Source: Alphaproteobacteria bacterium (GTDB lineage Bacteria > Pseudomonadota > Alphaproteobacteria > JAPOUT01 > G958296285). From it: 64,000 bases of DNA. The stretch covers positions 260,933 to 324,932 of the forward strand of contig OZ243043.1 in assembly GCA_965212075.1 (NCBI GenBank). The letters run 5' to 3'. The notes below the pieces were generated by a model. It searched no databases. It was given only the letters and a program-made list of their open reading frames with translations, and was not told the DNA's origin. This document shows, piece after piece, positions 23,221 through 48,867 of this stretch. Numbering within the stretch: position 1 is the stretch's first letter; each line of letters starts with the position of its first letter. A program made the translations under genes and the position numbers.

Positions 23221-24333
23221 TTATACGTTTAGTGCATTCTTGATTCTTTTGGTTATGATGTTTCTACCTTGCTCGCTGCTGAATTGACCAGCGGCTCCTT
23301 CATATCCTGCTCGCCAAAAATCAATGCCCTCAACTATTTCCCCTTCACTATTTTCTGCGCCTAATTTCTCAAGAGCCGGTTTGAGGATGTTTGCATATTC
23401 TTGTGGATCAGCAGGATCTTTTCCATCCATAACAATATTGATGAGAACAGATGGGATTAAAGCATGCAAAACATATACGCCAACAGTTTTCTGAATGGCG
23501 TAATTTTTTGGATTGTCTGTAAATGCCTCCTCAAATATGATTCTAATGCCTTTCCAGAGCGCATCAAGAATTTCCACTCTATCCTCGGTTTTGAATCTAG
23601 GTTGAATAAAACTTGATCCTTCACTTAGTGATCCTCGCAGAGAATTAACAATGGCGGCTGAGCCAATAATAGCTCCTTTAGTTTTTGTGTTCGGGAAACG
23701 GATAAGCCCTTTCCATATCTCTGTTTTATCTAGTTTTTCTGCGATGCTTTGAGCTTCCAACATCCAATCCAGCTTTTCTCTGGTTAGATATTCTTCGAGA
23801 TTCGATTCTGTTTGTGCCCTCTTTTTGAGTAGGGCGTAAGTGAGGTCAGTTTTGACGGATTTTGCTGTTGAATTAACGATGTGAAAGTGCTTCATTTCAT
23901 CTTCTTCATTAGCGCCAAGGAGACAGACGAACGGAAGCTGGTGATTCATCCACGTGTTATCATCGTGCTCTTCCTTAAGTTGCTTGAGGGCTTTTACACG
24001 ATGTTGCCCATCAATGATGAAAAATTTATCATTTTTGTTTTTTGGCAATGGTAGATGAAATCCACCTTTGTCTTTGAGTAAATCTTTCTCTGTGATGTTT
24101 CTTCTGTTAATAAGAATTGCTGTTGGCAGATCAGCTCGGCCTTGATGTAGGCTTTCAGCTAGTTGTGAAACACGCCTTTTATTGGCTTCGCGTTGATAGC
24201 CTTCTTTGGTTTCTTGGTCCCACTCGGGGATTTCAAAGTTTCTGAGGATGTGAATCACACTCATTGATCCGACAACGGTCGGTATCCTGCCTTCGATGAG
24301 GGGGCCTTCAACGACTTTAATTGAGTTTTCCAT
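23221..24333 (-). CDS. DGQHR-domain protein (DndB/DpdB-like, ParB/Srx nuclease superfamily), standalone
   Basis: Exact DGQHR motif (FFIIDGQHRVKALKQL) and a downstream HIVNSTAKSVKTDLTYALL block like DndB. About 370 aa. The gene is about 42% GC against about 57% for neighbours. Confidence 0.7.
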   Translation of the reverse strand: MENSIKVVEGPLIEGRIPTVVGSMSVIHILRNFEIPEWDQETKEGYQREANKRRVSQLAESLHQGRADLPTAILINRRNITEKDLLKDKGGFHLPLPKNKNDKFFIIDGQHRVKALKQLKEEHDDNTWMNHQLPFVCLLGANEEDEMKHFHIVNSTAKSVKTDLTYALLKKRAQTESNLEEYLTREKLDWMLEAQSIAEKLDKTEIWKGLIRFPNTKTKGAIIGSAAIVNSLRGSLSEGSSFIQPRFKTEDRVEILDALWKGIRIIFEEAFTDNPKNYAIQKTVGVYVLHALIPSVLINIVMDGKDPADPQEYANILKPALEKLGAENSEGEIVEGIDFWRAGYEGAAGQFSSEQGRNIITKRIKNALNV

Positions 24334-25255: not shown

Positions 25256-26163
25256 TGAGCGCAAACTACCAAACAATTCTTGCCGACAAAAAGGACGGCA
25301 TCTTATTGATTACCTTGAACCGGCCCGCCAAGCTCAACGCGTTCACTGTGGAGATGATGCGCGAGATCATTGATGCTCTCGACAAAGCCGACCAAGATGA
25401 CGAGGTGCGCGTGATTATTTTCACCGGCGCGGGGCGGGGCTTTTGCGCGGGCGCGGATCTTTCGGCGGGCGCGGAAACCTTTGACTATGAAAAGCGCGAG
25501 GACAGGCCGGAGCGCCACACGCCGCGCCTCGCCGACGGCTCGCCCGATTATGCCAGCCAGAAAATGCGCGATGGCGGCGGCTTGACCTCGCTGCGGCTCT
25601 ACGGGTGTCTCAAGCCGATCATTGCGGCGTTTAACGGCCCGGCGGTCGGCGTCGGGATCACGATGATGCTGCCTGCGGATATTCGCTTAGCGTCGCATGA
25701 GGCGCGGTTCGGCTTTGTGTTCACGCGGCGCGGCGTGGTGGCGGAGGCCTGTTCGTCGTGGTTTTTGCCGCGCCTTGTCGGGATCGCGCAGGCGCAGGAG
25801 TGGATGTTGACAGGCCGCGTCTTTGATGCTGAGGAGGCGTGGCAGGGCGGCTTAGTGCGCTCGCTGCACGAGCCCGACGAGCTTCTCCCCGCCGCCTTCG
25901 CGCTGGCGCGCGAGATCGCCGACAACACCGCGCCGGTTTCGGTCACGATGGTGCGGCGGATGATGTGGTCGATGTTAGGCGCCGATCACCCGATGGAGGC
26001 GCATAAGGTTGATAGCCGCGGCATTTTCGCTTTAGGCCGCGCCGCCGATGCCCGCGAGGGCATCATGGCCTTTTTGGAAAAGCGCGCCGCGCAATTTCCG
26101 GGCAAGGTGAGCGAAGATATGCCCTCCTTTTTCCCTTGGGAGAAAAAGCGCGATTACAGCTAG
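25252..26163 (+). CDS. enoyl-CoA hydratase/isomerase (crotonase family)
   Basis: LITLNRPAKLNAF...FTGAGRGFCAGADL oxyanion-hole motifs. Confidence 0.85.
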   Translation: MMSANYQTILADKKDGILLITLNRPAKLNAFTVEMMREIIDALDKADQDDEVRVIIFTGAGRGFCAGADLSAGAETFDYEKREDRPERHTPRLADGSPDYASQKMRDGGGLTSLRLYGCLKPIIAAFNGPAVGVGITMMLPADIRLASHEARFGFVFTRRGVVAEACSSWFLPRLVGIAQAQEWMLTGRVFDAEEAWQGGLVRSLHEPDELLPAAFALAREIADNTAPVSVTMVRRMMWSMLGADHPMEAHKVDSRGIFALGRAADAREGIMAFLEKRAAQFPGKVSEDMPSFFPWEKKRDYS

Positions 26164-26169
26164 GCGTGT

Positions 26170-27429
26170 TTATAACTTGGTGGTTTTCTCGACATTATCC
26201 ACTTCGCGCTCCGACAGCCGGATGTTGAGCAGGTTAGAAAAGCACACCACCGAGAGCAGCACCGCGCCCATCCCGCCGACCGAGATCAGCGGCGCTTGGT
26301 GGACGCCGACTAGATCAACGCAGATGCCGGTCAGCAATGCCCCGAACGGCGCGCCGCCCATAAACGATAATTGATAGATGGAGAGGATTCGCGCGCGATG
26401 GCTGTCGGGCGCGCGGTTCTGGATAATCGTCCGCCCCGACGACATAGAACAGCCCGCCGCGATCCCCCAAAACACGCAAAGCGCGGCGAGCATCCAATAA
26501 GGCTTTTCAATGGAGAGCAGGAAGATCACCACAAGGCCGGAGCTGATGCCCATCGCGAGCAGCCGTCCGACTGAGGCGATCTGCCCGATCCGCAGCAGCA
26601 TGATCGTCGCGACAATCGTGCCCGCCCAGAACAGCATATTCAATATCGCGATGTCCGCCGCGTCGCCCTGATAATAATCGCGCACTAAGATCGGCAGCAG
26701 CACCAAAAACGTTCCGATATAAAAAATTGAAATCCCAAACTGCAAAATCAGAACCGGCGAGATGTCCTTATGGCCGAACGCGACTTTGATGCCGTCAATC
26801 ATTTCGGGCAGCCGCCGCGGCAGCGCGCCGGATAGCTCTGGCCGCTGGGCGAGATCGCGCGGCAGCCGAAACGCCGCATAGCTCGCCGCGATAAAGATAA
26901 AGCCCTGCATGATGGGCAGCCAGCCAATGTGGATGAACTCAGACAGCGCAGCCAAAGTCATGCCGGTCAGCATCGCCGTGAATTGCAGGCCCAGCGCGAT
27001 ATTGACCGCGCGCTGAATCTCGGCAATCCCGACAATGTGCGAGAGCAGCGCATCGCGCGCAGGCATCACAAACGAGCTGATCGTCCCCATCGCAACGCCA
27101 TAGACGATCAGGCCAAACAGGCTCAGCTGGTCGGCGAGCACCATATAGCCCAGCACGATCGGCGGAAAAAACGCGATGCTCTGCAGCCGCAATAATATGA
27201 TCCGGCCATCATTACGTTCGGCGGTGACTCCGGCGGGGAGCATTAAAAAGAGCGCGGGTATCAGCAGCGATGCCTGCGCGATGCCGAGCATCGTCGCGTC
27301 AAGCCCCAGCACCAGCGCGCCGATCGCTTGAAAGGCGACAAGCTGAATCCCATGGCAGAGAAACCAGAAGGCCTGTCCGCTCATATACCAAGCGAGCGGT
27401 GCGGTGTCAGGTTTGGCGGCCTCGCTCAT
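26170..27429 (-). CDS. MFS transporter (paralogue 1 of a tandem pair)
   Basis: About 12 predicted TM segments. The N-terminus WYMSGQAFWFLCHGIQLVAFQAIGALVLGL is strongly similar to that of the next gene. Confidence 0.7.
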   Translation of the reverse strand: MSEAAKPDTAPLAWYMSGQAFWFLCHGIQLVAFQAIGALVLGLDATMLGIAQASLLIPALFLMLPAGVTAERNDGRIILLRLQSIAFFPPIVLGYMVLADQLSLFGLIVYGVAMGTISSFVMPARDALLSHIVGIAEIQRAVNIALGLQFTAMLTGMTLAALSEFIHIGWLPIMQGFIFIAASYAAFRLPRDLAQRPELSGALPRRLPEMIDGIKVAFGHKDISPVLILQFGISIFYIGTFLVLLPILVRDYYQGDAADIAILNMLFWAGTIVATIMLLRIGQIASVGRLLAMGISSGLVVIFLLSIEKPYWMLAALCVFWGIAAGCSMSSGRTIIQNRAPDSHRARILSIYQLSFMGGAPFGALLTGICVDLVGVHQAPLISVGGMGAVLLSVVCFSNLLNIRLSEREVDNVEKTTKL

Positions 27430-28697: not shown

Positions 28698-28875
28698 TTC
28701 GCTGACGGGAGGCCTCCTTTTTCGTGATTATGCCCGCGATTATGGCCGCATAACACGCTGCCCGCAAGGCTGAAGGGAGATGAGGGGGTAAGAAAAATTT
28801 AACCCTAGGGCTATAATGATAGAAGGCATTTTAAGGTGCATTTTAGGACGAGTCCGCATTAAGTTTCGGAACAAA

Positions 28876-29586
28876 AATATGAGCAAACAAGATCACAGTT
28901 TGGGCGCGGCCCTTTTGACCCTTGTCTTTTTTTTGGGCGGTTGCGGGACGACGGATGTGCAGTCTCTGCCCGATGATCTGTTGCAGAGCTTGGCCGCGCC
29001 CGATTCTTATGTAGCGACGCAAGATGGCGTGGCCACAAATAATGCACAGCCCGATTCTAGTCAAGTCAAAGGCAAAAATGGCGCAGCAGCCAAAGGCGGT
29101 CCGTTTGCGCGTCTTCGCCGTGCGCTTGAGCGCGGTGATTTTGATCCCAGTAAAATCAAAGCGCCTGAATATAACGTGCCGGTCTATAAGAGTGGAATCA
29201 AAAAGAAGCAGCAGCTTGGCGCGCTGATGGATTCGGCTTATGATGCTTATGAAAAAGTGACCGGAGATAAATGGTATCCGCGCCGCGCGCGCATTGGCAC
29301 AGGCAGGCCTTCGGGTGATCCTTTGCTCAATCCGAACTGGTGGCAGATTTATGCCGGCCAGACTCTGCAGCGAACATTGGCGACATGGGGCGCACGCGCG
29401 GGATGGCGCGTCGTGTGGAAGTCGGATTATGAATATCCGATTGAGGCCAACGCTGTTTTTATCGGAGACTTTCCCAAAGTGGTGCAGCGCGTTTTGGAGG
29501 TTTTTGAAAAAGAGCCGTCTCCGGTTCATGCGGTTTTTTATAAGAATCGCGTTGTTGTTATAGATAATCATGAAGGTAATGGATGA
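28876..29586 (+). CDS. lipoprotein with TcpQ-like C-terminal domain (PilL-like, type IVb pilus-associated)
   Basis: Start moved to MSKQDHSLGAALLTLVFFLGGCG (lipobox LGGC). The C-terminus TLQRTLATWGARAGWRVVWKSDYEYPIEANAVFIGDF matches the TcpQ/PilL family pattern as I remember it. Confidence 0.55.
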   Translation, partial: NMSKQDHSLGAALLTLVFFLGGCGTTDVQSLPDDLLQSLAAPDSYVATQDGVATNNAQPDSSQVKGKNGAAAKGGPFARLRRALERGDFDPSKIKAPEYNVPVYKSGIKKKQQLGALMDSAYDAYEKVTGDKWYPRRARIGTGRPSGDPLLNPNWWQIYAGQTLQRTLATWGARAGWRVVWKSDYEYPIEANAVFIGDFPKVVQRVLEVFEKEPSPVHAVFYKNRVVVIDNHEGNG

Positions 29587-31094
29587 TGCGTCGGTCTGCT
29601 TTTTTACTGGCTTTTTTACTGGCTCTGCCTCTGCTTGCAGGCTGCGCTGCGTTTTTTGAAGATGACGTCGTTTTTGATGATGCGGCGCAGCAGGCTGCAA
29701 ATGCAGAAAAAGATATTCAAGAATTCTATCAAGCGCTTCAGCAAAGCATAGACAAAGCGCCGCAGGCCAAGACAGCGCGCAAGAAGAAAAAGCGCGCGCG
29801 CACTTTGACGCGCTATGTGGATGAGGTTTGGCTTGGTGACAGGCCAAAATTTTTCATGCGCGGCCAGCAAAACCTGCCGGATAAGATCAAGCGCCAGCGC
29901 GGCTTGGTTTTTGTCAGCGCGGTAGATTTGGATATTCGTCTGATTGCCAGCCGGATTTCTGAAATGACAGGCATTCCGGTTCAAGTGAGGGGGTCGCATA
30001 TCAGGAATATCAAACTGATAAAGCGCGCGCGGTTGAATTATCGCGGCTCGCTGATCGGCCTTTTGAATGTCGTCGCGAATTCGTTTGAGGCGTCGTGGTC
30101 TTATGACGTAAAGAGCCGCAGCCTGATGTTCACGCGGCTGATGACGCGCGCATTTAATTTTTATGCGCCGCCTGATGAAACTGCATTCGCAACGCCCGTC
30201 GTCAAGACGGGCGAAGCCAAGCCGCGGTTTTTGAAGGCTGAGGCTTGGCGCAGAATTAAGCGCATTTTGACTGATGTGATGCCATCCGGCTCGCGCGCCA
30301 ACATATCTCCTGAAGCGGGCAAGATCACTGTCACGACCACACCGCCCGCAATGGAGCGTGTCGCGCAGCTTATTCGTGTTCACAATCAATATTTCACCCG
30401 TGAAGTTCACTTAAATGTTCAAGTGATTTCTTTTGATCTCAAAGATGATCTTGGCGCTGCGAACAGACGCCGTTTGAATCTGCCCACTTTGTTGAAGGCT
30501 GCGGGGCTGGATAGCCAAAAAATGCCGACCGACAAGAGCGAAGACAAAAAAAAGCTGTCGCAGATTGAGCTGATGAATGTTGATATTGGGCTGATCATTG
30601 CCGCTTTGCGCAAGATCGGCAAAGTATCGGTTTTGACGATCACCGATACGCAAACGAGAGACGGCAAGGTCACGCCGATCTCCATGACCTCGCAGCAGGC
30701 CTACCTGCCGCGGCCTGAGGAGGTGTCGACCAATGAAACCAATGCGCCGACAACCATCACGACGGGGTTTTCAATGCGTGTGCGCCCGCGCATTTTGCCG
30801 CGCGCGCGCGTGCAGCTGGATATGTCTATGTCGCTGCGCGTGCTTGACCAGATTAAGAGTTTGGGTGCAGACAATAATCGCGTGCAGATTCCTGAAATAT
30901 CAACAAATTCGTGGGCGCAAGAGACGATTATTCCCAATAGAGCGACTTTGCTCGTTGCGGGCTTTGAGCATGGCGGGCAAAAGGTGGGCGCGGCAAGAAA
31001 CCAAAACGCATTGCGCGCGCTGATGATCGTTTTGATCACGCCGACGATTATTGAACAGACCAACGCTGAAGAGGTGAGCGGTGCGGCGGGATAA
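29583..31094 (+). CDS. secretin-family outer-membrane lipoprotein (R64 PilN-like)
   Basis: Lipobox LLAGC after a signal peptide. The C-terminal secretin domain reads VSVLTITDTQTRDGKVTPISMTSQQAYLP...ATLLVAGFEH. 4-nt overlap with the upstream gene. Confidence 0.6.
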   Translation: MMRRSAFLLAFLLALPLLAGCAAFFEDDVVFDDAAQQAANAEKDIQEFYQALQQSIDKAPQAKTARKKKKRARTLTRYVDEVWLGDRPKFFMRGQQNLPDKIKRQRGLVFVSAVDLDIRLIASRISEMTGIPVQVRGSHIRNIKLIKRARLNYRGSLIGLLNVVANSFEASWSYDVKSRSLMFTRLMTRAFNFYAPPDETAFATPVVKTGEAKPRFLKAEAWRRIKRILTDVMPSGSRANISPEAGKITVTTTPPAMERVAQLIRVHNQYFTREVHLNVQVISFDLKDDLGAANRRRLNLPTLLKAAGLDSQKMPTDKSEDKKKLSQIELMNVDIGLIIAALRKIGKVSVLTITDTQTRDGKVTPISMTSQQAYLPRPEEVSTNETNAPTTITTGFSMRVRPRILPRARVQLDMSMSLRVLDQIKSLGADNNRVQIPEISTNSWAQETIIPNRATLLVAGFEHGGQKVGAARNQNALRALMIVLITPTIIEQTNAEEVSGAAG

Positions 31095-31581
31095 TCATAT
31101 CATCATGGCTCTTGCGGTGATGGGGCTGGCGGCTTCTACCGCACAAGCTACTGCACAGGCGCGTCCGGCGCCTAGCCAGATAGAGGAGCTGCTGCAGCAG
31201 CAGATCAATCAGGATCGTTTTCAAAAGCAGCAAGAGCGGCAAAAGCAGCTTCAAAGGGGGGTGCCTTTGCGCAGATCTTCATCTCAAGAGACACCACCGC
31301 GCACACCGCGCGCGCGCGCGGCTAAAGAGCAGCCTTATAGTGTGCTTATCATTGCAGGCAAGCGCAAGGCATTGCAGGCCGATTTAATTGACGAAAATCA
31401 AGAAGTGATCCGCGTCAAAGTGGGAGATCGCTTGACCACATCTTCATCGCAAGTTTTCTTTGTCAGAGCAATTACGGATAAAAGCGTGCAATTGGTGAAA
31501 GATGGCAGAGTCTTTTTTGCGCCGATGGCAACAGAAAAGAACATCAAGCCGCGCGCGCGTTCGCGCTCCTCAAACAGATGA
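31081..31581 (+). CDS. PilP-like periplasmic protein (secretin-associated beta-domain)
   Basis: Signal peptide (MALAVMGLAASTAQATAQA) and a C-terminal beta-rich block (YSVLIIAGKRKALQADL...VKVGDRL...VQLVKDG) resembling PilP/GspC. Confidence 0.45.
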   Translation: MRRDNHIIMALAVMGLAASTAQATAQARPAPSQIEELLQQQINQDRFQKQQERQKQLQRGVPLRRSSSQETPPRTPRARAAKEQPYSVLIIAGKRKALQADLIDENQEVIRVKVGDRLTTSSSQVFFVRAITDKSVQLVKDGRVFFAPMATEKNIKPRARSRSSNR

Positions 31582-32078
31582 GACGGCGGAAATTTCCTGA
31601 TACTTTTTTTGTGTTATCTATAGCGGCGGCGCTGATAGCGGGTCTGCTTGCATGGCGGCAGGGTTTTGATGCGGATAAAACCAGCCTATTGACGATGAGC
31701 ATAGAAGGGACTTTGGCGCAAATCCGCACGGATTTTGCTGCCGCGCGGGATTATAGCTTTTTGAGCACCGTCTATGATAGCCGCCGCAAAAATCCTTGGG
31801 GGAATTTTACTGTTAGAGCAAGCGCTTATAATGGCGGTGCGGGCGCTTCTCATGTTCAGATTCGCCTCACGCAGATTCCCGACAAAGTGTGCGAGAATTT
31901 ATTAAAAACTTTGGGTGCAGATCGTTTTTTTATTCATGTGATTGAAGATGCAGATGACATCGTTAATTGGAGCGCGGCGATCAGCGTTTCGGCGCGCAAT
32001 TGCCAGAGCTTTGCCAATCAGGCAAAAAACGCTGTCCAATTGATATGGATGAAATCTAAAGTTCACGGATCAAAATGA
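31578..32078 (+). CDS. small N-terminally anchored protein with a C-terminal Cys pair (possible pilin/pseudopilin-like)
   Basis: MRRRKFPD followed by a 20-residue hydrophobic segment. Two Cys about 39 residues apart near the C-terminus (CENLL ... ARNCQSF). No canonical G/FTLIE prepilin site. Confidence 0.3.
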   Translation: MRRRKFPDTFFVLSIAAALIAGLLAWRQGFDADKTSLLTMSIEGTLAQIRTDFAAARDYSFLSTVYDSRRKNPWGNFTVRASAYNGGAGASHVQIRLTQIPDKVCENLLKTLGADRFFIHVIEDADDIVNWSAAISVSARNCQSFANQAKNAVQLIWMKSKVHGSK

Positions 32079-32091
32079 CTGAGGGGAGTGA

Positions 32092-33069
32092 GTGATTATG
32101 AGTCTTTCCAACATTCGGATGAGAGATATTTATTTTACAGCAGATGGACGCGTGCTGCTTTCAATTGACGGTGATTTGTTTTCGCTTGAGCGTATTGTCG
32201 CGCCGGAAAATGCAGATTTTCTTTCGTCCATTTTAAAGGTGCAGACTAAGGATTTAACATTTGCGGCGCGGGCGATCATCACCGACAGCCAAGAGATTTA
32301 TGATTTGGCGCGCAAGAAAAATGAGGCGGCGGGCGAAATCCATCACGATGAAACTGTTTACCATTTTAGCCGCCTATTGCCGCACGAGGACTCGGCTTTG
32401 TTTCATTTGCGCCGCCTTGAGAGCGAGGTGCCTAATTTGGAGACTTTGGGTCTGTCGCGGAATCTGATCTGGCATATTGAGCAGACGTGCCAAAAAGCAG
32501 GCTTGGTGGTGGCGGTAGGTCTTGAGAATGCGCGGCGTTCGGCGCGCTTATCTTCTTTGCTGTATTCATTATTGCATGCACGAGGCAAATTGGCGTGGAC
32601 TTTGGAAAGCGCGCCTGCCTATCGGCTCGCCGGGCTTTATCATCACGATCACGATGATGGCTATTGCGTTCAAGCGCATGTTGCCCAGCCATTATGGGGC
32701 GAGACCATTCGCGCCGCGAGCGCCGCCGATGCGGATTATATTTTAATTGATGAGATCAAAGAGGCCGAATGTGCCGCGCAAGCTCTGACGGCGGCGAGTT
32801 CGGGGCATCTTGTTTTATCAGGGTTTTACGCTGAAACGATTCCCGAAGCTTTGTCGCGGCTTGCCGATTATGCGGCGTCGGTTTTGAGCGAGACTTTGGC
32901 GCGCAAATTGATTGCGCAGTCTTTTCTTTTGGCGTTTGATGATGAGGGCGCACTTTTTGCTGATCTTGAGGTGAAAAACAAAATCGCGGCGGGCAAATGG
33001 ATTATGCTGACGAGTGATATAGAAAGCCAGATGGAGCGCCTGCGGCATGGCCAGCCACCTTTTGCCTGA
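32092..33069 (+). CDS. GspE/PilB-family secretion ATPase homologue with degenerate Walker A (predicted catalytically inactive)
   Basis: Asp-box-like TLESAP and the Walker B/His-box region (ADYILIDEIKEAECAAQALTAASSGHLVLSGF) are present. The position where GPTGSGKST should be reads GLENARRS. About 325 aa, so it lacks the N-terminal domains. Confidence 0.55.
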   Translation: MIMSLSNIRMRDIYFTADGRVLLSIDGDLFSLERIVAPENADFLSSILKVQTKDLTFAARAIITDSQEIYDLARKKNEAAGEIHHDETVYHFSRLLPHEDSALFHLRRLESEVPNLETLGLSRNLIWHIEQTCQKAGLVVAVGLENARRSARLSSLLYSLLHARGKLAWTLESAPAYRLAGLYHHDHDDGYCVQAHVAQPLWGETIRAASAADADYILIDEIKEAECAAQALTAASSGHLVLSGFYAETIPEALSRLADYAASVLSETLARKLIAQSFLLAFDDEGALFADLEVKNKIAAGKWIMLTSDIESQMERLRHGQPPFA

Positions 33070-34725: not shown

Positions 34726-34854
34726 ACTTATTAAGTGCAATATACATAAGCTGCTTATGGACGGGGATATCAAAATCGCTTTTTTGTCAAAATATCGCGG
34801 CGCGAAACATCGCCGCGCGAATTGACACCCCGTCTAGAGGGGGTAAAAGCAGAA

Positions 34855-36114
34855 ATGAAAATAATTATTTTAGGCGCAGGGTTAGCGGGCATTTGTTCAA
34901 GCTGGACGCTCGCGCGCGATGGCCATGAGGTGGTCGTCATTGATCGCCATCCGGCGGCGGCGCGCGGCACGAGCTTTGCCAATGGCGGCCATATCGCGGC
35001 GAGCGAAGCTCTGCCTTGGTCGAGCAAGGTGATTTTGCGCCGCCTGCTTTTGAGCTTTGTCCGGCGTCAGGGCGCGATGCGGCTGCATTTGCGCGCTGAT
35101 CCGGCGCAGTGGTGGTGGCTGGCGCGCATGGTTGCCAATGCGTCCGCCGGAGCTTGGCGCTCCAACACACATCGTTTGTTATCGCTTGCCGCTTTGAGTC
35201 AGGCCTGCTTCGCGCAATGGCTGGACGAGATCAAAGACGAAGATTCTCACATCAACGATAATGGTGTTTTGCATATATTTTCGGGCCGCGGCGCGATGCA
35301 GCGTGCGAAAAAGCGCGCGGCACTCATGGAGGCCAACGGGATTGATGTGCAGGTTTTGGACGGACATCTCTGTATGCGCACCGAACCTGCGCTGACGAAG
35401 GCGGTGCAATATCGTCGGGTTGAGGCGGGGCTGTTTTTTGCCTCCGATAAGACAGGAGACGCGCGCGCTTTTACTGAGACATTGAGCACACATGCCGCCA
35501 AGAAGGGTGTGAAATTTTTGTTCAATCATCAATTGACGGGTGTTGTGATGGAGGGTCGCCGGATCAAATCCGTGTTGACGGATCGCGGTGAGGTGAAGGG
35601 TGATATTTTTATTTTGGCGCTGGGCACGGACAGCGCATCTTTTGCGAAACATTTTGGGCTTGATCTGCCGATCTATCCGGTGCGCGGCTATTCGGTGACG
35701 ATGGCGACCAATGGCGCGCACGCGCCCAAATTAGGATTGGTGGATGAATCGCGCCGCGTGGTTGTCAGCCGTCTGGGGGCGCAATTGCGTCTTGCGGGTC
35801 TTGCGGATATTGGCGCGGCAGGGCATGAGATTCCGAGTCACCGCGCGGATATGCTGATGCGCGCTTGGTCGGAATTGCTGCCTGAGAGCGCGGATCGCGC
35901 TTCGGCCAAATTTTGGATTGGCGAGCGTCCGATGACTCCCGACAGCCTGCCTCTGCTTGGCCGCGCGCAGATGACGGACAATCTTTATTTGAATACGGGT
36001 CATGGCGCGCTGGGCTGGACGTTATGCCATGCGAGCGCGCAACTCACTGCAGATTTGATCGCGCGCCGCGCGCCGCAGCTTGATCCGACGCCGTTCTCGC
36101 TCTCAAGATTTTAA
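34855..36114 (+). CDS. dadA: D-amino acid dehydrogenase small subunit
   Basis: Start moved to MKIIILGAGLAGICSSW (FAD Rossmann fold). Length and C-terminus typical of DadA. Confidence 0.8.
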   Translation: MKIIILGAGLAGICSSWTLARDGHEVVVIDRHPAAARGTSFANGGHIAASEALPWSSKVILRRLLLSFVRRQGAMRLHLRADPAQWWWLARMVANASAGAWRSNTHRLLSLAALSQACFAQWLDEIKDEDSHINDNGVLHIFSGRGAMQRAKKRAALMEANGIDVQVLDGHLCMRTEPALTKAVQYRRVEAGLFFASDKTGDARAFTETLSTHAAKKGVKFLFNHQLTGVVMEGRRIKSVLTDRGEVKGDIFILALGTDSASFAKHFGLDLPIYPVRGYSVTMATNGAHAPKLGLVDESRRVVVSRLGAQLRLAGLADIGAAGHEIPSHRADMLMRAWSELLPESADRASAKFWIGERPMTPDSLPLLGRAQMTDNLYLNTGHGALGWTLCHASAQLTADLIARRAPQLDPTPFSLSRF

Positions 36115-38736: not shown

Positions 38737-39042
38737 GTGTTGTCAAACTTCAGCGATCAGGCGCATTTATACGACCTTTTGGCGCGCATTCATGCCCTGA
38801 TGGAAAGATATTTTGACGCGCTTGAAAACAATCTCGCACATAAGGATTATCGCTTCGAGCAGCGCGAGCGCGACGCCCGTGTGTTTAGCACACTCGCGCG
38901 CACTTTGGAAAAATTAACTCACGTTGAACAGCTTATCACAGAACCGCCGCGCGCCGCAGACAGCGACGCCGAAACGCGAAAACGTCTTGAGCAGAGACTG
39001 GCTCGGCTCATTGACATCCCAACAGAGAGAGAAGTTTCTTAA
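38737..39042 (+). CDS. GTA g1-like small helical protein (putative small terminase)
   Basis: 101-aa ORF directly upstream of, and overlapping, the large-terminase start region. Confidence 0.4.
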   Translation: MLSNFSDQAHLYDLLARIHALMERYFDALENNLAHKDYRFEQRERDARVFSTLARTLEKLTHVEQLITEPPRAADSDAETRKRLEQRLARLIDIPTEREVS

Positions 39043-40318
39043 CAGCCTCAATCATGAAGAAGCACAATGGATCATGGCTTACTGGCCGCTCTGGGCGCGC
39101 GCAGACCAGCTCCCGCCTGAGCGGCGGCGGCACACGCACTGGACGAGCTGGCTCATCCTCGGCGGACGCGGCGCAGGCAAAACCCGCGCCGGCGCCGAAT
39201 GGATCCGCGCCGCGGCCACAAAAAATTTCGCGGGTCAAGCCTCATCCGGACCATTGCGTATCGCACTCGTCGGCGAAACATATCTGGCGGCGCGCGCCGT
39301 TATGGTGGAAGGCGAAAGCGGATTGTTGAACATTGGCAGTGAAAAGACGCGGCCTGCGTTCCAGCCATCGCGGCGGCAGCTGCGCTGGCCAAGCGGCGCG
39401 ATCGCTGAATTGTTTTCCGCTGAAGACCCCGAAGCTCTGCGCGGGCCGCAATTTCATTTTGCGTGGTGCGATGAGCTCTGCAAATGGCGCTATGCCGATG
39501 AAACATGGAATATGCTGCAATTTGCCTTGAGGCTTGGTGAACGGCCTCAGCAGGTCATCACGACGACGCCGCGCACGATGCCTTTGCTCAAAAAACTGAT
39601 GGCCGCGCCCGACACCGTCATCACCCATGCGACGACCTATGCCAATCGCGGCAACCTCGCGCCGTCATTTTTTGACTCGATCATTCGCAACTATGAAGGC
39701 ACGCGGCTTGGCCGACAGGAACTTGATGCGGAGCTGATGGAAGATGATCCCGATGCTCTCTGGACACGAGAAATGATCGAGCGCAGCCGCTGTGCGGCGG
39801 CGCCGTCAGATTTGGCGCGCATCATTGTCGCTGTTGATCCGCCGGTGACCGGCACGAAAACCTCAGACGAATGCGGGATCATCGTCGCCGCTTTGGATGA
39901 GGCGCAAAAAGAGATTTATGTACTCGCCGATCATTCGGCAGGCGATCTGTCGCCGACCCAATGGGCCGAGCGCGCGGTGCGCGCTTTGCGCATGCACAAA
40001 GCCGACCGCATTGTTGCTGAGGTGAATCAAGGCGGTGATATGGTTGAGACGATCATCCGGCAGATTGCGCCCTCGGTGCCATTTCGCGCGGTGCGCGCGA
40101 GCCGCAGCAAGCGCCTGCGCGCCGAGCCCGTCGCCGCGCTTTACGAACAAAGGCGGGTTTATCATGTTGGCGCTTTGCCGCAGCTTGAAGATCAAATGTG
40201 CTCTTTTACCGGCAGCGGCAATGCGCCCAGCCCCGATCGCTTGGATGCGCTCGTCTGGGCGATCACCGATTTAATGTTCAGCGGCGCGAGCGGCCTCGCG
40301 CGCATGAGACGGCTTTAA
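38924..40318 (+). CDS. GTA large terminase
   Basis: FLNSLNHEEAQW...WARADQLPP N-terminus and Walker A (GGRGAGKTRAGAEW). Start (TTG at 38924) is uncertain. Confidence 0.8.
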   Translation: MNSLSQNRRAPQTATPKRENVLSRDWLGSLTSQQREKFLNSLNHEEAQWIMAYWPLWARADQLPPERRRHTHWTSWLILGGRGAGKTRAGAEWIRAAATKNFAGQASSGPLRIALVGETYLAARAVMVEGESGLLNIGSEKTRPAFQPSRRQLRWPSGAIAELFSAEDPEALRGPQFHFAWCDELCKWRYADETWNMLQFALRLGERPQQVITTTPRTMPLLKKLMAAPDTVITHATTYANRGNLAPSFFDSIIRNYEGTRLGRQELDAELMEDDPDALWTREMIERSRCAAAPSDLARIIVAVDPPVTGTKTSDECGIIVAALDEAQKEIYVLADHSAGDLSPTQWAERAVRALRMHKADRIVAEVNQGGDMVETIIRQIAPSVPFRAVRASRSKRLRAEPVAALYEQRRVYHVGALPQLEDQMCSFTGSGNAPSPDRLDALVWAITDLMFSGASGLARMRRL

Positions 40319-40336
40319 AAATTTCGCCAAAACAGC

Positions 40337-41566
40337 TTGAAGGATAAACCTATGAAACTTTGGCCATTCAACACCGCGCCCGAGAAAAAAACCGGACGCG
40401 GCGAGCGCCTTGTCGCGCTGCATATGCAGGGACGGCCTGTCTGGACGCCGCGCAACATCGAGTCTTTGGCGCGCGAGGGCTTCATCCGCAATGCGATCGT
40501 CTATCGCTGCGTGCGCATGATCGCCGAAGCGGCGGCCCATATCCCTTGGCTGCTCTACGACAATAAAGTCGAGATGCACGAACATCCGATGTTGGAGCTG
40601 CTCCACCATCCCAATAGCGGCCAGAGCGGCATTGATCTGATGGAAAGCTGGTATGGCCATTTGCAGCTCTCGGGCAATGGCTATTTGGAGATCGTCGATA
40701 TTGGCGCCGCGCGGCGCGAGCTTCATGTGCTGCGTCCGGATCGGATGCGGGTCGTGCCTGACAAAAGAGGCTGGCCGTCCGGCTATGAATATCGCGTCGG
40801 TGGGCGGCGAATGATCTATCCGGGGCGCGATGCCAAAAACCTCGCGCCGATTTTGCATATGCGTCTTTTCCACCCGATCAATGATTATTACGGCATGAGC
40901 CCGATTGAAGCCGCCGCCTATGGCATCGACATTCATAATGCGGCCGGCAGCTGGAGCAAAGCCCTGTTGGATAATTCGGCGCGGCCTTCGGGCGCGCTTG
41001 TTTATAAAGGGCCTGACGGCGCGCCGAACCTGACGCAGGATCAGTTTGCGCGCCTGAAGCGCGAATTGGAGGAAAATTACGAGGGCGCAAACAATGCTGG
41101 CCGGCCTTTATTATTGGAAGGCGGACTTGAATGGGCGTCTATGGGCCATTCGCCGCGCGATATGGATTTCATTGACACGAAGCATGTGGCCGCGCGCGAG
41201 ATTGCACTCGCCTTTGGCGTGCCGCCAATGTTGCTGGGCATCCCCGGAGATAATACCTTCGCCAATTACGCTGAGGCCAATCGGACTTTCTGGCGGCAGA
41301 CGATTTTGCCTCTGGTCACGCGCACCGCCGCAACTTTGACGCAATGGCTCACCCCGCGTTTTGGCCGCTCTTTGCGCCTGTCGTTTGACAGCGACCGGAT
41401 CGATGCGCTTGCCAGTGAACGTGAGTCTTTGTGGAAGCGCATTGCGGATTCGGATTTCTTGACGATCAACGAAAAGCGCGCTGCGATGGGCTATGAGCCG
41501 ATCACGGGCGGAGACGCGCTCGGCAGCATGAGCGCTTCGGGCGCGCGCAATCCATCACAGATATAA
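40337..41566 (+). CDS. GTA portal protein (HK97 family)
   Basis: Length and conserved blocks (GNGYLEIV...MSPIEAAAYGIDIHNAAG). Confidence 0.8.
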   Translation: MKDKPMKLWPFNTAPEKKTGRGERLVALHMQGRPVWTPRNIESLAREGFIRNAIVYRCVRMIAEAAAHIPWLLYDNKVEMHEHPMLELLHHPNSGQSGIDLMESWYGHLQLSGNGYLEIVDIGAARRELHVLRPDRMRVVPDKRGWPSGYEYRVGGRRMIYPGRDAKNLAPILHMRLFHPINDYYGMSPIEAAAYGIDIHNAAGSWSKALLDNSARPSGALVYKGPDGAPNLTQDQFARLKRELEENYEGANNAGRPLLLEGGLEWASMGHSPRDMDFIDTKHVAAREIALAFGVPPMLLGIPGDNTFANYAEANRTFWRQTILPLVTRTAATLTQWLTPRFGRSLRLSFDSDRIDALASERESLWKRIADSDFLTINEKRAAMGYEPITGGDALGSMSASGARNPSQI

Positions 41567-41593
41567 AAAACAAATATAGCCAATAGATATAAA

Positions 41594-41881
41594 ATGAGTT
41601 TAACCGAACAAAAATGGAATCTAGATCGCCGCGTGCCGCTGGTTTTTATCTTGGCGCTGATCGTGCAAAGCGGCGCAGCACTTCTCTGGGTCGGGCAGAT
41701 CACGCAGCGCATCAATCATATAGAACAGGCCACCGGCTTCGCCGCTGATATTGGCGAGCGCATCGTTCGCCTTGAGGCCAACACTTCTTTTATGCGCGCG
41801 ACCCTCCAGCGTGTGGAGCGCAAAATTGACCTGCTGCACGCACAAAAAAATGCCGCCAGACACCGCGGAGGCGGAGAATAA
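41594..41881 (+). CDS. GTA g3.5-like small membrane protein
   Basis: 95 aa, one TM, lying between portal and protease as in RcGTA. Confidence 0.5.
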   Translation: MSLTEQKWNLDRRVPLVFILALIVQSGAALLWVGQITQRINHIEQATGFAADIGERIVRLEANTSFMRATLQRVERKIDLLHAQKNAARHRGGGE

Positions 41882-42463
41882 ATGAATCTTGATTTTTCCC
41901 GCTCAGGCCGGTTTCGCGGCTATGCGAGCATTTTTAACAGCCCCGATCTGGCGCATGATGTGATTATGCCGGGCGCGTTTGCGCGCTCGCTGCACCGCCG
42001 CGGCACGAAGCGCGTGCGCATGCTCTACCAGCATGAGGCCGCGCAGCCGATCGGCATCTGGCACGAACTCAAAGAAGATGGGCAGGGCCTTTTGGTTGAA
42101 GGCTCTTTGCTGCTTGATGTTGAGCGCGCGCATGATGTCTGGAAGCTCATCGGTGCCGGCGCGATTGACGGCCTGTCCATCGGCTTTCGCACGATTCGCT
42201 CCGGCACGGCGCGGCAGCATGGTGTGCGCGTCGTCCATGAAATTGACCTTGTTGAAATTTCCATCGTCACATTCCCGATGCACCCGCAGGCGCGCGTGAG
42301 CCGCCTCGGAGCAATTACGCCGATTCCACAAAATTTACCTTCACAAAACTTAATGGCACAAAACTTAATGGCACAAAACTTAATGGCACAAAACTTAATG
42401 GCACAAAACTTAATGGCACAAAAATTACGCGATGCGGCGAAACATATTTCACCGCATTTTTAA
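41882..42463 (+). CDS. GTA prohead protease (HK97 family) with C-terminal (QNLMA)5 repeat tail
   Basis: HK97 protease blocks (FRGYASIFN...DLAHDVIMPGAF; AIDGLSIGF) and a 25-aa C-terminal repeat. Confidence 0.8.
   Translation: MNLDFSRSGRFRGYASIFNSPDLAHDVIMPGAFARSLHRRGTKRVRMLYQHEAAQPIGIWHELKEDGQGLLVEGSLLLDVERAHDVWKLIGAGAIDGLSIGFRTIRSGTARQHGVRVVHEIDLVEISIVTFPMHPQARVSRLGAITPIPQNLPSQNLMAQNLMAQNLMAQNLMAQNLMAQKLRDAAKHISPHF
42327..42431 (+). repeat. 15-bp tandem repeat CACAAAACTTAATGG x5 (plus degenerate flanks), coding (QNLMA)n
   Basis: Five perfect copies at 42342-42416. The repeat is AT-rich in a GC-rich gene and lies at the 3' end of the protease ORF, upstream of the capsid RBS. Confidence 0.9.
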
Positions 42464-42494
42464 CCCCCACCGGAAACTAACAAAGGAGACCCTT

Positions 42495-43787
42495 ATGAAT
42501 TCCGAAACCCCCAACCATGAAATCAAGGCGCTCGGCGCTGACGGCCATGATGCCCATGAAGTCCGCCACGCGCTCAACGAGCTGATGCGCGCATTTGAAG
42601 CCTTCAAAGAGGCCAATAATGATCGCCTCGCCCAGATTGATCGCCGCCTGAGCGCCGACGTCGTCACCGAAGATAAAATCCACCGTCTCAATGAGACGAT
42701 GGACACGCATCAAAAAATGCTCGACGATTTCGCGATCGCACAGCAGCGCCCGGCGCTGGACAGCTATGTCGGCTCCGCCGAGCGTGAGCACAAAGCCGCG
42801 TTTGACTCTTATCTGCGCAAAGGCATCACCAGCGGCCTCGACAGCTTTGAGAGCAAAGCGCTGTCGACAGCAACAGACTCGGCAGGCGGATATGTCGTGC
42901 CTGAAACGGTGATGCTCGCTGTCACCGATCGTCTCGCGAGCGCATCGCCTTTTCGCCGCCTCGCGACCGTCCAGCAAGTCTCGACGACATCGTTCAAGAA
43001 AGTGCTTACGGCCTCAGGCCCGGACGTCCGATGGGCAATGTCAGAAAGCAATGATGGCACGATCGGAAACCCAGATGGCAGTTTTGCTGAACGCGCCTTC
43101 AACTTCGGGCGGCTGGTCGCCACACCTGTCGCGACGCAAAGCCTGCTTGATGACAGCGCCATTGATCTCGAAAAATGGCTCGCCGACGAAATCTATATCG
43201 GCTTTGCTGAAAAAGAAGCCGAAGCTTTTGTCAAAGGCGATTCCAGCCCGCCTTCGCCGAAGGGCTTTTTGCAGGAGGCCATTGCTGCGCAGGGTGATTC
43301 TCTCACCAATAGCCAGATCGGCTATATTCCGACTGGCAAAAGCGCGGATTGGCCTCTAGATGGCGCCGACGGCGGCGGCAGAATGGCCAAATTGCTTGAA
43401 GTGGTCTATGCGCTCAAAGCGGCTTATCGCACGCAGGCGAGCTGGCTCATGAACAAGACGAGCATTGCCGTCGTGCGCAGCTGGACGGATGCCGAGGGCA
43501 ACGCGCTCTGGCAGCCGCCAACCCAGCTCGGCGCGTCTGCGACTTTGCTGGACTATCCGGTTGCTGAAGTTGAGGATATGCCCAACAAGAATACGTCCGG
43601 CCTTGCTTACCCGCTGGCCTTCGGCAATTGGCAGCGCGGCTATCTGATCGCTGATCGCATGGATATGCGCATCTTGCGCGATCCTTATTCCAGCAAGCCG
43701 AATGTGGTGTTCTATACGACGAAGACCCTCGGCGGCGGCGTGATGGAGCACAGCGCGATCAAACTGCTCAAATGTTCGGTTAACTAA
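42495..43787 (+). CDS. GTA major capsid protein (HK97 family)
   Basis: Start moved to MNSETPNHEIK, 7 nt after an AAGGAG RBS. Conserved capsid blocks throughout. Confidence 0.8.
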   Translation: MNSETPNHEIKALGADGHDAHEVRHALNELMRAFEAFKEANNDRLAQIDRRLSADVVTEDKIHRLNETMDTHQKMLDDFAIAQQRPALDSYVGSAEREHKAAFDSYLRKGITSGLDSFESKALSTATDSAGGYVVPETVMLAVTDRLASASPFRRLATVQQVSTTSFKKVLTASGPDVRWAMSESNDGTIGNPDGSFAERAFNFGRLVATPVATQSLLDDSAIDLEKWLADEIYIGFAEKEAEAFVKGDSSPPSPKGFLQEAIAAQGDSLTNSQIGYIPTGKSADWPLDGADGGGRMAKLLEVVYALKAAYRTQASWLMNKTSIAVVRSWTDAEGNALWQPPTQLGASATLLDYPVAEVEDMPNKNTSGLAYPLAFGNWQRGYLIADRMDMRILRDPYSSKPNVVFYTTKTLGGGVMEHSAIKLLKCSVN

Positions 43788-43866
43788 CCACAAGTGAACA
43801 AAATGCCCGTCCGTTTTACTGCGGGCGGGCATTTAACTTGAGCATTTAACGGGAAAAATTTTTACG

Positions 43867-44421
43867 ATGTTTCTTTCACTCAAAACCGGACCGGCCATTG
43901 AGCCGGTGAGCCTTGCTGAAGCCAAAGCGCATCTGCGCATGGATGGCACCGATGAAGACGGGCTGATCAATTCGCTGATCACCGCCGCGCGCCTGATGGT
44001 GGAGGCGCACACGGCGCGCGCACTGATCACACAGGCTTGGCTGCTTCATTTGGACAATACATATTTGGACAGCCCATCAGGATTTTATGAGTTGCCGCTT
44101 CAGCCGGCAAAGGAGATCACCGGCGTCAAAGTTTTCGCCAAAGATGGCGCCGAGACCCCGCTCAGCGCGGAGGATTACATCACCGAAATGCGTGGCGAAA
44201 CGATGAGGGTGAAGCTTCACCGCACCGCGCACCGCGCTGAAGTAGCCTTTGTCGTCGGCTATGGCGACGAGGCGTCAAATGTGCCGGCACCTTTGACGCA
44301 GGCGATTTTGCAGCTGACCGCTAATTGGTTTGAAAATCGCGGCAATGCGTCTTTGATGGGCAGCGCCATGCCTAAGGCGGTTTCGGTTTTGCTCGCTCCT
44401 TATCGCAGTGTGCACTTATGA
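43867..44421 (+). CDS. GTA head-tail connector (gp6-like)
   Basis: Position and size in the GTA order. Confidence 0.6.
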   Translation: MFLSLKTGPAIEPVSLAEAKAHLRMDGTDEDGLINSLITAARLMVEAHTARALITQAWLLHLDNTYLDSPSGFYELPLQPAKEITGVKVFAKDGAETPLSAEDYITEMRGETMRVKLHRTAHRAEVAFVVGYGDEASNVPAPLTQAILQLTANWFENRGNASLMGSAMPKAVSVLLAPYRSVHL

Positions 44422-44756
44422 TCGGTCGCTTGCGGCATCGCTTGACTTTGCAAAGACCGGTTCTCACCGCCGATGGCGCGGGCGGCCAAAACCGCAGCTG
44501 GGAGGAGGCCGCAAAAGTCTGGGCCGATCTGCGCGACATATCGGGCGCGCAAGCCGGATTTGCCGAAGGCCTCGCCGCGACGACGCGCACGCGCATCACC
44601 ATTCGCTGGCGCGCTGATCTGACCGCGGTGATGCGCTTTTCCGACGGCCAGCGAATATTCAATATCATCTCGGTGCTTGACCAGACGGGCGTGAAAAGAT
44701 TCCTCACCTGCATTTGTGAAGAAGATCTGCGCGAACGCGAGGCGGGGGCGCAATGA
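44418..44756 (+). CDS. GTA head-tail adaptor
   Basis: Position and size. 4-nt overlaps on both sides. Confidence 0.6.
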   Translation: MIGRLRHRLTLQRPVLTADGAGGQNRSWEEAAKVWADLRDISGAQAGFAEGLAATTRTRITIRWRADLTAVMRFSDGQRIFNIISVLDQTGVKRFLTCICEEDLREREAGAQ

Positions 44757-45184
44757 AATCTTTATCTTTGGTTTTGCAAAAGGCGCTGCACCAGAAATTG
44801 TCTGCTGCTTTGCGAGAGGGGAATTTGCGCGAGGGTAAAGCGGTGAAGGTCTATGACGGCGCGCCGCCGGAGGCCGCCTTCCCCTATGTGACGATCGGGG
44901 AAGGGCGCGTGCGGATTGAGGCGCTCGATCAGATCAGCCTCTATGATCATCTATGCGATGTGTTTGTTTTCTCACAGCATACAGGCATCAGCGAGACCAA
45001 AGAGATTCTTGAAACCATTTACGATGTGCTCGCAGGAGATGATCCCCTATCTATTGACGGCCATCATCTCACTTTGCTGACGATCACCGAAATGCGATTT
45101 CAATCCATGAGCGATGGAAAAACTTGGCGCGGACAATTAACGTTCCGCGCTCTCACTGAACCCGAAACAAAATCTGCGGCTTAA
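44753..45184 (+). CDS. GTA DUF3168 tail-completion protein
   Basis: Position and size. Confidence 0.55.
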   Translation: MKSLSLVLQKALHQKLSAALREGNLREGKAVKVYDGAPPEAAFPYVTIGEGRVRIEALDQISLYDHLCDVFVFSQHTGISETKEILETIYDVLAGDDPLSIDGHHLTLLTITEMRFQSMSDGKTWRGQLTFRALTEPETKSAA

Positions 45185-45222
45185 CCCAGCCAAAGCAACC
45201 AATTACCTTAAAGGAGAAAAAT

Positions 45223-45660
45223 ATGACTGCTCAAAAAGGCAAAGATATTCTGATCAAGCTGCTTGTGTCGGCGGCGGATGCACAGAACAAAGTCTATTCA
45301 ACGATGGCCGGGCTGCGCGCGCATAACATTTCGCTGAACGCGGCCTCTATAGATGTGTCTCATGCCGCGCAGACGCATCAGTGGCGCGAGCTTTTGGATG
45401 GCGGCGGCATTAAAACGATGAGCGTTTCAGGCGAAGGCGTGTTCCGCGATGACGACGCCGACGACAAAGTGCGCCGCCAATTTGTCGATGGCGCGATCAG
45501 CGAATGGCTGATCCATATTCCGGATTTCTACAATGTGACCGGCAACTTTCAAGTGACCGGTCTGGAATATGCCGGTGAATATGACGGCGAAGTGACGTGG
45601 CGGCTGTCGCTGGAATCAGCCGGCGCGCTGTCATTCGATGCAACTTCCGTATCTGAATAA
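45223..45660 (+). CDS. GTA major tail protein (TP901-1 family)
   Basis: Position and size. Confidence 0.6.
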   Translation: MTAQKGKDILIKLLVSAADAQNKVYSTMAGLRAHNISLNAASIDVSHAAQTHQWRELLDGGGIKTMSVSGEGVFRDDDADDKVRRQFVDGAISEWLIHIPDFYNVTGNFQVTGLEYAGEYDGEVTWRLSLESAGALSFDATSVSE

Positions 45661-46049
45661 TGCATAAGGTTCGCAATCACTGGCGCGGCGACTTGGAGGC
45701 CGTTTTAGGCGATAAGCCCTATCGGCTCTGTTTGACTCTGGGCGCGCTGGCCGAGCTGGAATCTTTGCTGGCGGATGAAGACATCATCGCCTTCACTGAA
45801 AGATTGAGCGAAGGCCGCATTCGCGCGACAGATGTCAAACATGTATTTGCCTGCGCGCTGCGCGGCGGCGGCCATGAGATCAGCGATGACGAGGTCGCGT
45901 CTTTGATGCCCGCAGGCGGACTCAGCGAAGCGATTCAAATCGTCGGACAGTTGATTTCTTTATCTTTTGGTGGTGCGGCCACAGGTGGAGACGAGGCCAC
46001 CTCGGTGGGAAAGCCCGCGCCGAAAGCGCCTTCCCGTGGTCGCGCATGA
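45660..46049 (+). CDS. GTA tail assembly chaperone (g10)
   Basis: Position and size. Confidence 0.55.
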   Translation: MHKVRNHWRGDLEAVLGDKPYRLCLTLGALAELESLLADEDIIAFTERLSEGRIRATDVKHVFACALRGGGHEISDDEVASLMPAGGLSEAIQIVGQLISLSFGGAATGGDEATSVGKPAPKAPSRGRA

Positions 46050-46225: not shown

Positions 46226-46233
46226 GAGAAAAT

Positions 46234-46836: not shown

Positions 46837-46860
46837 AATTTTCATTGGTAGAAAAATCAA

Positions 46861-47517: not shown

Positions 47518-47525
47518 GAGTCTTT

Positions 47526-48862: not shown

Positions 48863-48867
48863 GACAT

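Follow-up and report, generated by a model that had tools for sequence, protein, structure and literature searches.

The window analysed here, a 64,000-nucleotide stretch of contig OZ243043.1 from an alphaproteobacterial genome, encodes on its forward strand a protein that is related to the PilT-like secretion ATPases and whose nucleotide-site motifs are degenerate. Our preferred explanation, to which we attach a probability of about 0.6, is that this pseudo-ATPase is a catalytically dead descendant of a short BfpF/PilT-type retraction ATPase from a chromosomal type IVb pilus (T4bP) operon, and that it has been retained as a non-motor protein. The homology, fold, motif loss, synteny, gene losses and selection on which this explanation is built were shown for the locus and its relatives. 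The gene is the following:

32098-33069, forward strand: pseudo-ATPase gene, coding for a BfpF/PilT-fold protein of 323 amino acids (aa) from the ATG at 32098

The longest mechanical open reading frame (ORF) begins at a GTG at 32092, runs to 33069 on the forward strand and encodes 325 aa. It exists as described by an earlier model-made reading of the letters alone (the sequence-only reading), and the strings quoted there (AGLVVAVGLENARRSARL, TLESAP, ADYILIDEIKE and SGHLVLSGF) are all present in it. The gene likely starts at the ATG at 32098, which we preferred because the ribosome-binding site GAGGGGAG is found ahead of it, at 32081-32088, and because the database gene call and the orthologue described below agree on this start, both beginning with MSLS.

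Homology to secretion ATPases, as proposed from the letters, was confirmed at several levels. The Pfam family PF00437 (T2SSE) matched with 34.2 bits against a gathering score of 24.9, over residues 204-263 only (profile positions 202-261 of 370), which is the Walker B/His-box region. The best NCBIfam family was TIGR01420 (pilT_fam, PilT/PilU), matched over residues 95-269 with an E value of 1e-13 and a score of 51.3 bits, below the curated cut-off of 319.1. In a phmmer search of the PDB, residues 53-279 were aligned to Thermus PilT2 (5fl3, E 8.6e-9). This alignment is gapless through the former P-loop and places GLENARRS column for column with GPTGSGKS, in agreement with the replacement reported by the sequence-only reading.

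To define which positions are altered, we used a reference set of 58 active relatives, contained in a 60-sequence alignment; 38 of its columns reach a conservation of 80% or higher in this set. In the window protein, 23 of them are unchanged and 15 are altered, every altered one being in or next to a nucleotide-site motif. The unchanged columns comprise structural positions as well as E170, R105, H237 and the catalytic E219. The four degenerate motifs are located as follows:

32518-32541, forward strand: former Walker A, G141-L-E-N-A-R-R-S148 replacing GxTGxGK[ST]
32599-32622, forward strand: degenerate Asp box, T168-L-E-S-A-P-A-Y175, where the consensus of the family is TIEDPPEY
32737-32763, forward strand: Walker B region, Y214-ILIDEIKE-222, with E219 kept, G218D and R221K
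32800-32832, forward strand: His box remnant, S235-GHLVLSGFYA-245, with H237 kept, T242G and H244Y

Walker A reads GxTGxGKT in the 58 active relatives; the window protein carries G144N, G146R, K147R and T149A, in columns where G, G, K and T are conserved at 81-100%. In the Asp box, E170 is kept and D171S, P172A and E174A are changed, the last in a column that is 100% Glu among the 58 relatives. The Walker B of the family is of the atypical hhhhG type and becomes hhhhDE here through G218D, next to the retained catalytic Glu E219. The H244 column is 100% His in the reference set. The other changed columns are R89H (the ‘YRV’ arginine of the N-terminal domain), R209A, P212A and one gap; R105, one conserved arginine of the N-terminal domain, is thus retained and R89 lost.

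In PilT-like ATPases, both Walker motifs (A and B), the catalytic Glu, two arginine fingers and an Asp-box Glu are reported to be completely conserved (McCallum et al. 2017, PMC5424180). In the same paper, coordination of Mg2+ is ascribed to the Asp-box Glu, and a contact with the gamma-phosphate to a His-box His (PMC5424180). By position, E174 would correspond to the Mg-coordinating Glu and R89 to one of the two arginine fingers. As judged from these motifs, ATP hydrolysis would be lost and ATP binding probably also, at least in the canonical manner.

The sequence-only reading had considered that a P-loop might lie elsewhere in the protein, or be hidden by a frameshift or an assembly error. 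No GxxxxGK[ST] occurs anywhere in the protein, and the relaxed pattern [GA]xxxx[GA][KR][ST] is absent from the six frames of the window gene when stop codons are not crossed. Therefore, no frameshift hides a P-loop. In the orthologous gene, the relaxed pattern gave three non-glycine chance matches only, all away from the P-loop position: AHQLIARS, which lies in the helix following the His box, and two strings on the reverse strand.

The same reading had described the protein as short and as lacking the N1 and N2 domains, and here it has to be corrected. An AlphaFold2 (AF2) model computed from the 60-sequence alignment has a mean predicted local distance difference test (pLDDT) score of 96.2 and a predicted template modelling (pTM) score of 0.91. 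Foldseek comparison of this model with the PDB gave full-length matches (312-336 columns, TM-score 0.65-0.70) to PilT 2ewv and 3jvv, PilT4, PilT2 and PilU, the best being PilT 2ewv (E 2e-17, 321 columns). Since the matches to PilT, PilU and PilT4 are full length, both lobes of the predicted fold, an N2-type N-terminal domain and a RecA-like C-terminal ATPase domain, are present in the model. A full HMMER search of 1.84 billion representative proteins returned 2465 relatives, and the best 150 of these are mostly 300-350 aa long, so that 323 aa is a normal length in this clade, as is the absence of N1. An N-terminally truncated GspE/PilB without N2 is ruled out by the model, the Foldseek matches and the family lengths. 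The pseudo-ATPase is instead a complete representative of the BfpF/PilT-like clade of short retraction ATPases; BfpF forms its own clade beside PilT/PilU (McCallum et al. 2017, PMC5424180).

Close relatives are very few. In a word-indexed search of 5.8 billion clustered proteins and in the HMMER search of the 1.84 billion representatives, only the window protein and one orthologue were found. A scan of genome contigs, whose species representatives do not include the genome of the window itself, returned the same metagenome-assembled genome (MAG) only. This single close orthologue (P0002), 66-68% identical, is encoded on CBDBUR010000001 of an ‘Alphaproteobacteria bacterium’ MAG. It carries GLDEMRRA at the Walker A position, also without a P-loop, followed by ESRPA, DEIK and GLYA, and has nearly all changes in common with the window protein. 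Position 209, where P0002 keeps the family Arg, is the exception. The common changes are therefore losses older than the split of the two genomes. The word ‘conserved’ used in the sequence-only reading stands insofar as P0002 shares the changes and both genes are under purifying selection, with the qualification that two genomes in the searched collections represent the whole sample.

Degenerate sites were also seen outside this pair. A second, independently degenerate short T4bP ATPase (P0155) is encoded at 2788-3777 of a metagenome contig (L007), and another relative, P0115, reads GASGARKT, the second Gly being changed to Arg. The case of P0155 hints that loss of catalysis may recur in the BfpF-like clade. 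One substitution, the Gly to Asp at position 218 (codon 32749-32751), is common to the two orthologues and to P0155 and recreates a canonical-looking hhhhDE; the 100%-conserved Asp-box Glu is lost in the same protein that gained Asp218. Asp218 may represent a compensatory rewiring, or may form a salt bridge to the conserved Arg146/Arg147 pair.

We next consider the genetic setting. The sequence-only reading placed the gene in a secretin operon, and this was borne out by a PilN-family secretin gene on the same strand. The window operon consists of five tightly packed genes with 4-bp overlaps, of which the pseudo-ATPase gene is one. The others are:

28816-29586, forward strand: TcpQ/PilL-like gene, the first of the remnant operon (Pfam TcpQ, 77.5 bits, E 8e-22)
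29583-31094, forward strand: type IVb PilN-family secretin gene (Pfam Secretin, 30.9 bits), with a 4-bp overlap with the upstream gene
31081-31581, forward strand: PilP-like gene, 166 aa (TIGR03021 pilP_fam, E 8e-4)
31578-32078, forward strand: pilin homologue, 166 aa (Pfam PilS, E 8e-4)

The MAG has the identical five-gene order, followed by SufE, DUF6456, DnaA_C-like, DAO and sulfite reductase genes and a gene transfer agent (GTA) cluster. Complete T4bP operons occupy the same chromosomal slot, pilus genes followed by SufE-DUF6456-DnaA_C-sulfite reductase, in two other loci (L003 and L004). Their short ATPases, P0015 and P0016, are the next relatives of the window protein (E about 1e-47, ~31% identity over the full length). 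These differ from it in keeping all motifs, with an intact Walker A (GATGSGKT or GSTGAGKT), and in being placed inside a complete operon. P0016, the nearest intact relative, is 36% identical to BfpF of enteropathogenic Escherichia coli (EPEC).

In L003 and L004, the gene order is TcpQ, secretin, a 432-aa gene, PilP-like, extension ATPase, T2SSF, two pilins and the short ATPase, then two genes, one with a near-threshold N-methyl motif, which are probably minor pilins, and, a few genes further downstream, an A24 prepilin peptidase. An operon on a plasmid of Bosea sp. RAC05 (L006, annotated by the Prokaryotic Genome Annotation Pipeline) has the same architecture, including PilO2 and PilV. The 432-aa gene has no family match; by analogy of position, it would be the counterpart of the Bosea PilO2. 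The TcpQ, secretin, PilP-like and pilin families of the window are all represented in these three operons, which, unlike the window, also carry PilO2 or its presumed counterpart, an extension ATPase of 602-930 aa, T2SSF, N-methyl pilins and an A24 peptidase. The extension ATPases of the complete operons are 41% identical to BfpD-type proteins. That of L004 (4299-7091) is 930 aa long, with the T2SSE core starting from about residue 460 and an N-terminal region without Pfam match; its L003 orthologue has 602 aa.

Across the 64-kb window and 21 kb of the MAG locus, searches by tblastn and with an ATPase hidden Markov model (HMM) detected neither genes for T2SSE, T2SSF or A24 nor fragments of them. 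Hence neither locus carries the extension ATPase and the platform protein, the usual companions of BfpF-type ATPases, and a second intact ATPase, which the sequence-only reading had suggested to look for, is absent from the same two regions. None of the best 120 matches to the L004 extension ATPase lay on the 1,613,014-bp or the 711,217-bp contig, a weak negative for a relocated copy since the parent protein of the query was also not returned. The A24 peptidase is absent both from its syntenic slot and from elsewhere in the window. In the complete operons this slot, after the DnaA_C-like gene, holds the A24 peptidase (L003 14283-15020, L004 14392-15141); in the window (34822-36114) and in the MAG it holds a DAO-family oxidoreductase gene dependent on flavin adenine dinucleotide (FAD).

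The retained genes are themselves modified to various degrees. The hallmarks of type IVb systems (R64 PilL-V or bundle-forming pilus type) are in part present, namely the TcpQ/PilL-like protein and the PilN-type secretin, and in part absent, namely the class III pilin signal and A24. The TcpQ-like gene is 61% identical to its MAG orthologue, with a ratio of non-synonymous to synonymous substitution rates (dN/dS) of 0.19-0.30, and FLGGC in its product is a possible lipobox. The secretin scores 117 bits against TIGR02520 (PilN family), below the cut-off, and has a possible lipobox, LLAGC; it shares 32% identity with the L004 secretin from end to end, and its dN/dS against the MAG gene is 0.15-0.24. 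The PilP-like protein is shortened relative to the 312- and 542-aa products of the complete operons, and its C-terminal domain aligns with those encoded at L003 1591-3219 and L004 3347-4285. The L003 protein (1591-3219) has a tail of ~300 residues made of PQGG[FVL]-type repeats, which is absent from the L004 protein and from the 166-aa protein of the window. The pilin homologue lacks the prepilin cleavage Gly(-1) and Glu5, RRKFPDTFFV replacing the ERG↓VTLVEV of the L003/L004 pilins. Among the latter, one has a near-threshold N-methyl motif and three have an ERG↓VTLVEV-type cleavage site. Both the window and the MAG homologues show K/A-F-P-D-T-F/L-F where G-V-T-L-V-E is expected, whereas the two Cys, C105 and C142, do not vary when the homologue is aligned to the L003/L004 pilins. 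Between window and MAG, the dN/dS of this gene is 0.23. The loss of Gly(-1) and Glu5 is consistent with a system that has also lost its peptidase and no longer assembles filaments.

A scan for promoters and terminators of the operon gave nothing usable, and an Rfam scan of the window gave no matches. Between 28400 and 34800, the window contains 26 terminator-like hairpins compared to 9.6 +/- 2.9 in shuffled sequences, none convincingly between operon genes; this excess is probably a composition effect of GC-rich palindromes.

Selection on the pseudo-ATPase gene was estimated from the comparison of the window with the MAG. The dN/dS was 0.20 (NG86) or 0.13 (YN00), with a dS of 1.2-1.8, and matches that of the flanking genes SufE (0.19-0.21), DUF6456 (0.17-0.22) and DUF934 (0.12-0.15); the values for all five remnant genes are about 0.14-0.30. 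Because the pseudo-ATPase evolves at the level of the neighbouring housekeeping genes, it is a selected protein rather than a decaying pseudogene. In agreement, none of 2000 ORFs stayed open in a neutral simulation, and simulated amino acid identity did not rise above 46% even at d=0.5, compared to the observed 66-68%; together with dN/dS, this makes a decaying pseudogene unlikely. The suggestion of the sequence-only reading that the role is structural or regulatory rather than that of a motor is in part supported, as purifying selection makes a non-motor role a sensible reading.

Conservation is patchy along the protein. Identity to P0002 is highest in residues 214-260 (Walker B, His box and the next helix), at 85-90%, amounts to 80% in the N-terminus, and falls to 50% in the former P-loop (5/10 residues), where the RR pair is nevertheless conserved. 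It is on account of this pattern that we consider the fold and some surfaces to be under selection, and the P-loop not. A burst of change is apparent on the stem branch: the short ATPases of this clade are 30-32% identical to those of L003 and L004, compared to 48% between L003 and L004, and the housekeeping neighbours show no comparable excess divergence on the stem.

Taken together, these results suggest the following course of events. In the ancestor of the window genome and the MAG, the operon would have lost the extension ATPase, the platform protein, PilO2, the minor pilins and the prepilin peptidase, and the homologue of the major pilin would have lost the signature for cleavage and assembly. 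The nucleotide site of the short ATPase would have been taken apart at Walker A, at the Asp-box Asp and Glu, at one conserved N-domain Arg and at the second His of the His box. The bilobed PilT fold, with its most strongly conserved core, was retained, and purifying selection acted afterwards. The present role would be that of a non-motor scaffold or regulator, which could work jointly with the four envelope genes retained alongside it (TcpQ, secretin, PilP-like and the uncleavable pilin-like gene) as a pilus-less remnant. The functional link of the pseudo-ATPase to the secretin module is the uncertain part of this proposal. Catalysis was lost as one element in the dismantling of an entire machine, not as a regulatory addition to a working one.

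Several points weigh against this explanation. The dS values are near saturation and the omega values hence approximate, and ‘conserved’ stands here for a single pairwise comparison between two genomes. The protein still has E219, one of the conserved Arg and the first His of the His box, G218D gives a canonical-looking hhhhDE, and the absence of ATP binding is read from the motifs. The absence of motor genes covers the 64-kb window and the MAG locus, not the remaining genome (~1.6 Mb). Finally, the usual docking partners of PilT-like proteins, the platform protein and cytoplasmic anchors of the PilO2/BfpC type, are absent, and a physical link to the secretin module is therefore without a known route; of the proteins retained with it, only short tails at the N-terminus would reach into the cytoplasm.

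A bolder version, which we regard as rather unlikely, is that the five genes encode a new envelope apparatus which descends from a type IVb pilus, works without ATP and does not serve pilus dynamics. It would comprise the secretin channel with TcpQ, the PilP-like protein as periplasmic connector and a membrane-anchored, non-polymerising pilin domain, with a dead PilT-fold ring as cytoplasmic scaffold or signalling module, and might be used for example for passive uptake or export across the outer membrane. If so, the recurrent inactivation in BfpF-like proteins, P0155 being the second case, would point to a general non-catalytic role in the clade.

It is unlikely that the gene is a functionless relic of the dismantled pilus operon, still open by chance, through recent inactivation or through a polar or translational-coupling constraint. 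All motor partners are gone and the active site is destroyed, the former P-loop is among the more variable segments, with 5/10 residues identical, and the operon proteins evolve somewhat faster (43-66% identity) than the housekeeping neighbours (69-91%), as a relic would. Against this, dN/dS is 0.13-0.20 at a dS above 1, and the ORF is open in both genomes compared to none of the 2000 neutral simulations. Residues 214-260 are 85-90% identical, the AF2 fold is compact and very confident, and the gene junctions are compact without pseudogene debris.

We are still more doubtful that a rewired site binds or hydrolyses nucleotide, with the Walker B Asp replacing the Asp-box Glu for Mg2+ and the RR pair replacing the P-loop Lys. 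The retention of E219, E170, R105 and H237, the presence of G218D and of the RR pair in both orthologues, and the same combination of K-to-R and G-to-D in the independent relative P0155 would be expected from such a site. However, the two invariant glycines that follow the first one in the P-loop have become N/E and R, one of the two orthologues has Ser at the [ST] position but the other has Ala, and the N-domain Arg, the second His-box His and the conserved His-box Thr are gone. No PilT-like ATPase is known to us to function in the absence of GxxxxGK[ST].

The chance that a sequencing, assembly or gene-calling artefact hides a real P-loop is negligible, as we found no evidence supporting one, and as the same pattern of substitutions recurs, in an uninterrupted alignment, in the independently assembled MAG, all six frames of the window gene are free of P-loop-like strings and the alignment to PilT is gapless through the region.

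Beyond the operon, a GTA-type head-tail cluster (window 38924-52794) encodes a large terminase, portal, S78 protease and major capsid protein, as well as a 1308-aa protein with GTA_TIM, Phage-tail_3 and Rcc01698_C domains. It lies ~6 kb downstream of the pilus remnant, and the same adjacency occurs in the MAG and at the complete operon of L004. A functional link between the remnant and this cluster is unsupported: the adjacency is found beside complete operons too and is ordinary conserved synteny. In the MAG (L001, 1397-3785), three extra genes are inserted between the enoyl-CoA hydratase gene and a pair of major facilitator superfamily (MFS) genes, without counterpart at window 26163-26170. 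One has a weak ZorA-like match, another a faint OmpA-like match and the third is a DUF8245 gene; they may constitute a Zorya-type defence insertion. In the window, a 370-aa ORF on the reverse strand (23221-24333) matches DndB with 35 bits and GmrSD_N weakly, and is possibly a DNA-modification or restriction-associated gene.

With a catalytically dead ATPase as the preferred explanation, the locus offers an evolutionary series at a single chromosomal site, from complete T4bP operons with an active short ATPase to a stripped operon with a dead but selected one. It would also constitute a natural experiment on what a PilT-fold protein and a secretin module do when there is no ATP turnover, and a warning for annotation, in that a T2SSE match need not mean a motor. 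Its scope is narrow, covering two uncultured or poorly described alphaproteobacterial genomes. Full-text literature searches found no description of a natural pseudo-ATPase of the PilT family, absence from text searches being weak evidence.

Among characterised systems, BfpF of the EPEC bundle-forming type IVb pilus (pMAR2, WP_001183608) is 29% identical to the window protein over 235 aa (E 2e-24). Both share the short two-domain architecture without N1 (331 aa in BfpF, 323 aa here) and a gene position inside a T4bP operon after pilin or platform genes. BfpF keeps GATGSGKS, EDPPE, GEIR and the second His-box His, whereas the window protein has GLENARRS, ESAPA, DEIK and Tyr, and the BfpF partners BfpD, BfpE and BfpC have no counterpart at the window locus. 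PilT and PilU of type IVa pili (2ewv, 3jvv, 6ojx and 9n32) are the top structural matches over the full length (TM-score 0.65-0.70); they differ in sequence, with 16-21% identity to the window protein, and in that the latter is without the nucleotide site. P0155 resembles the window protein in the change of the Walker A Lys to Arg (GEASSGRT), in the change of the Walker B Gly to Asp (YILIDEI) and in the loss of the His-box histidines, and differs in keeping the P-loop glycines and EDPIE. Its gene is part of an apparently complete R64-type operon with T2SSF, bundlin/PilS, PilM, shufflon PilV and SLT. The pseudo-ATPase of the window belongs by descent to the BfpF-like clade yet departs in its motifs from the catalytic hallmarks of the family; it would be a pseudo-enzyme derivative rather than a secretion ATPase, and would work like no characterised member of the family.

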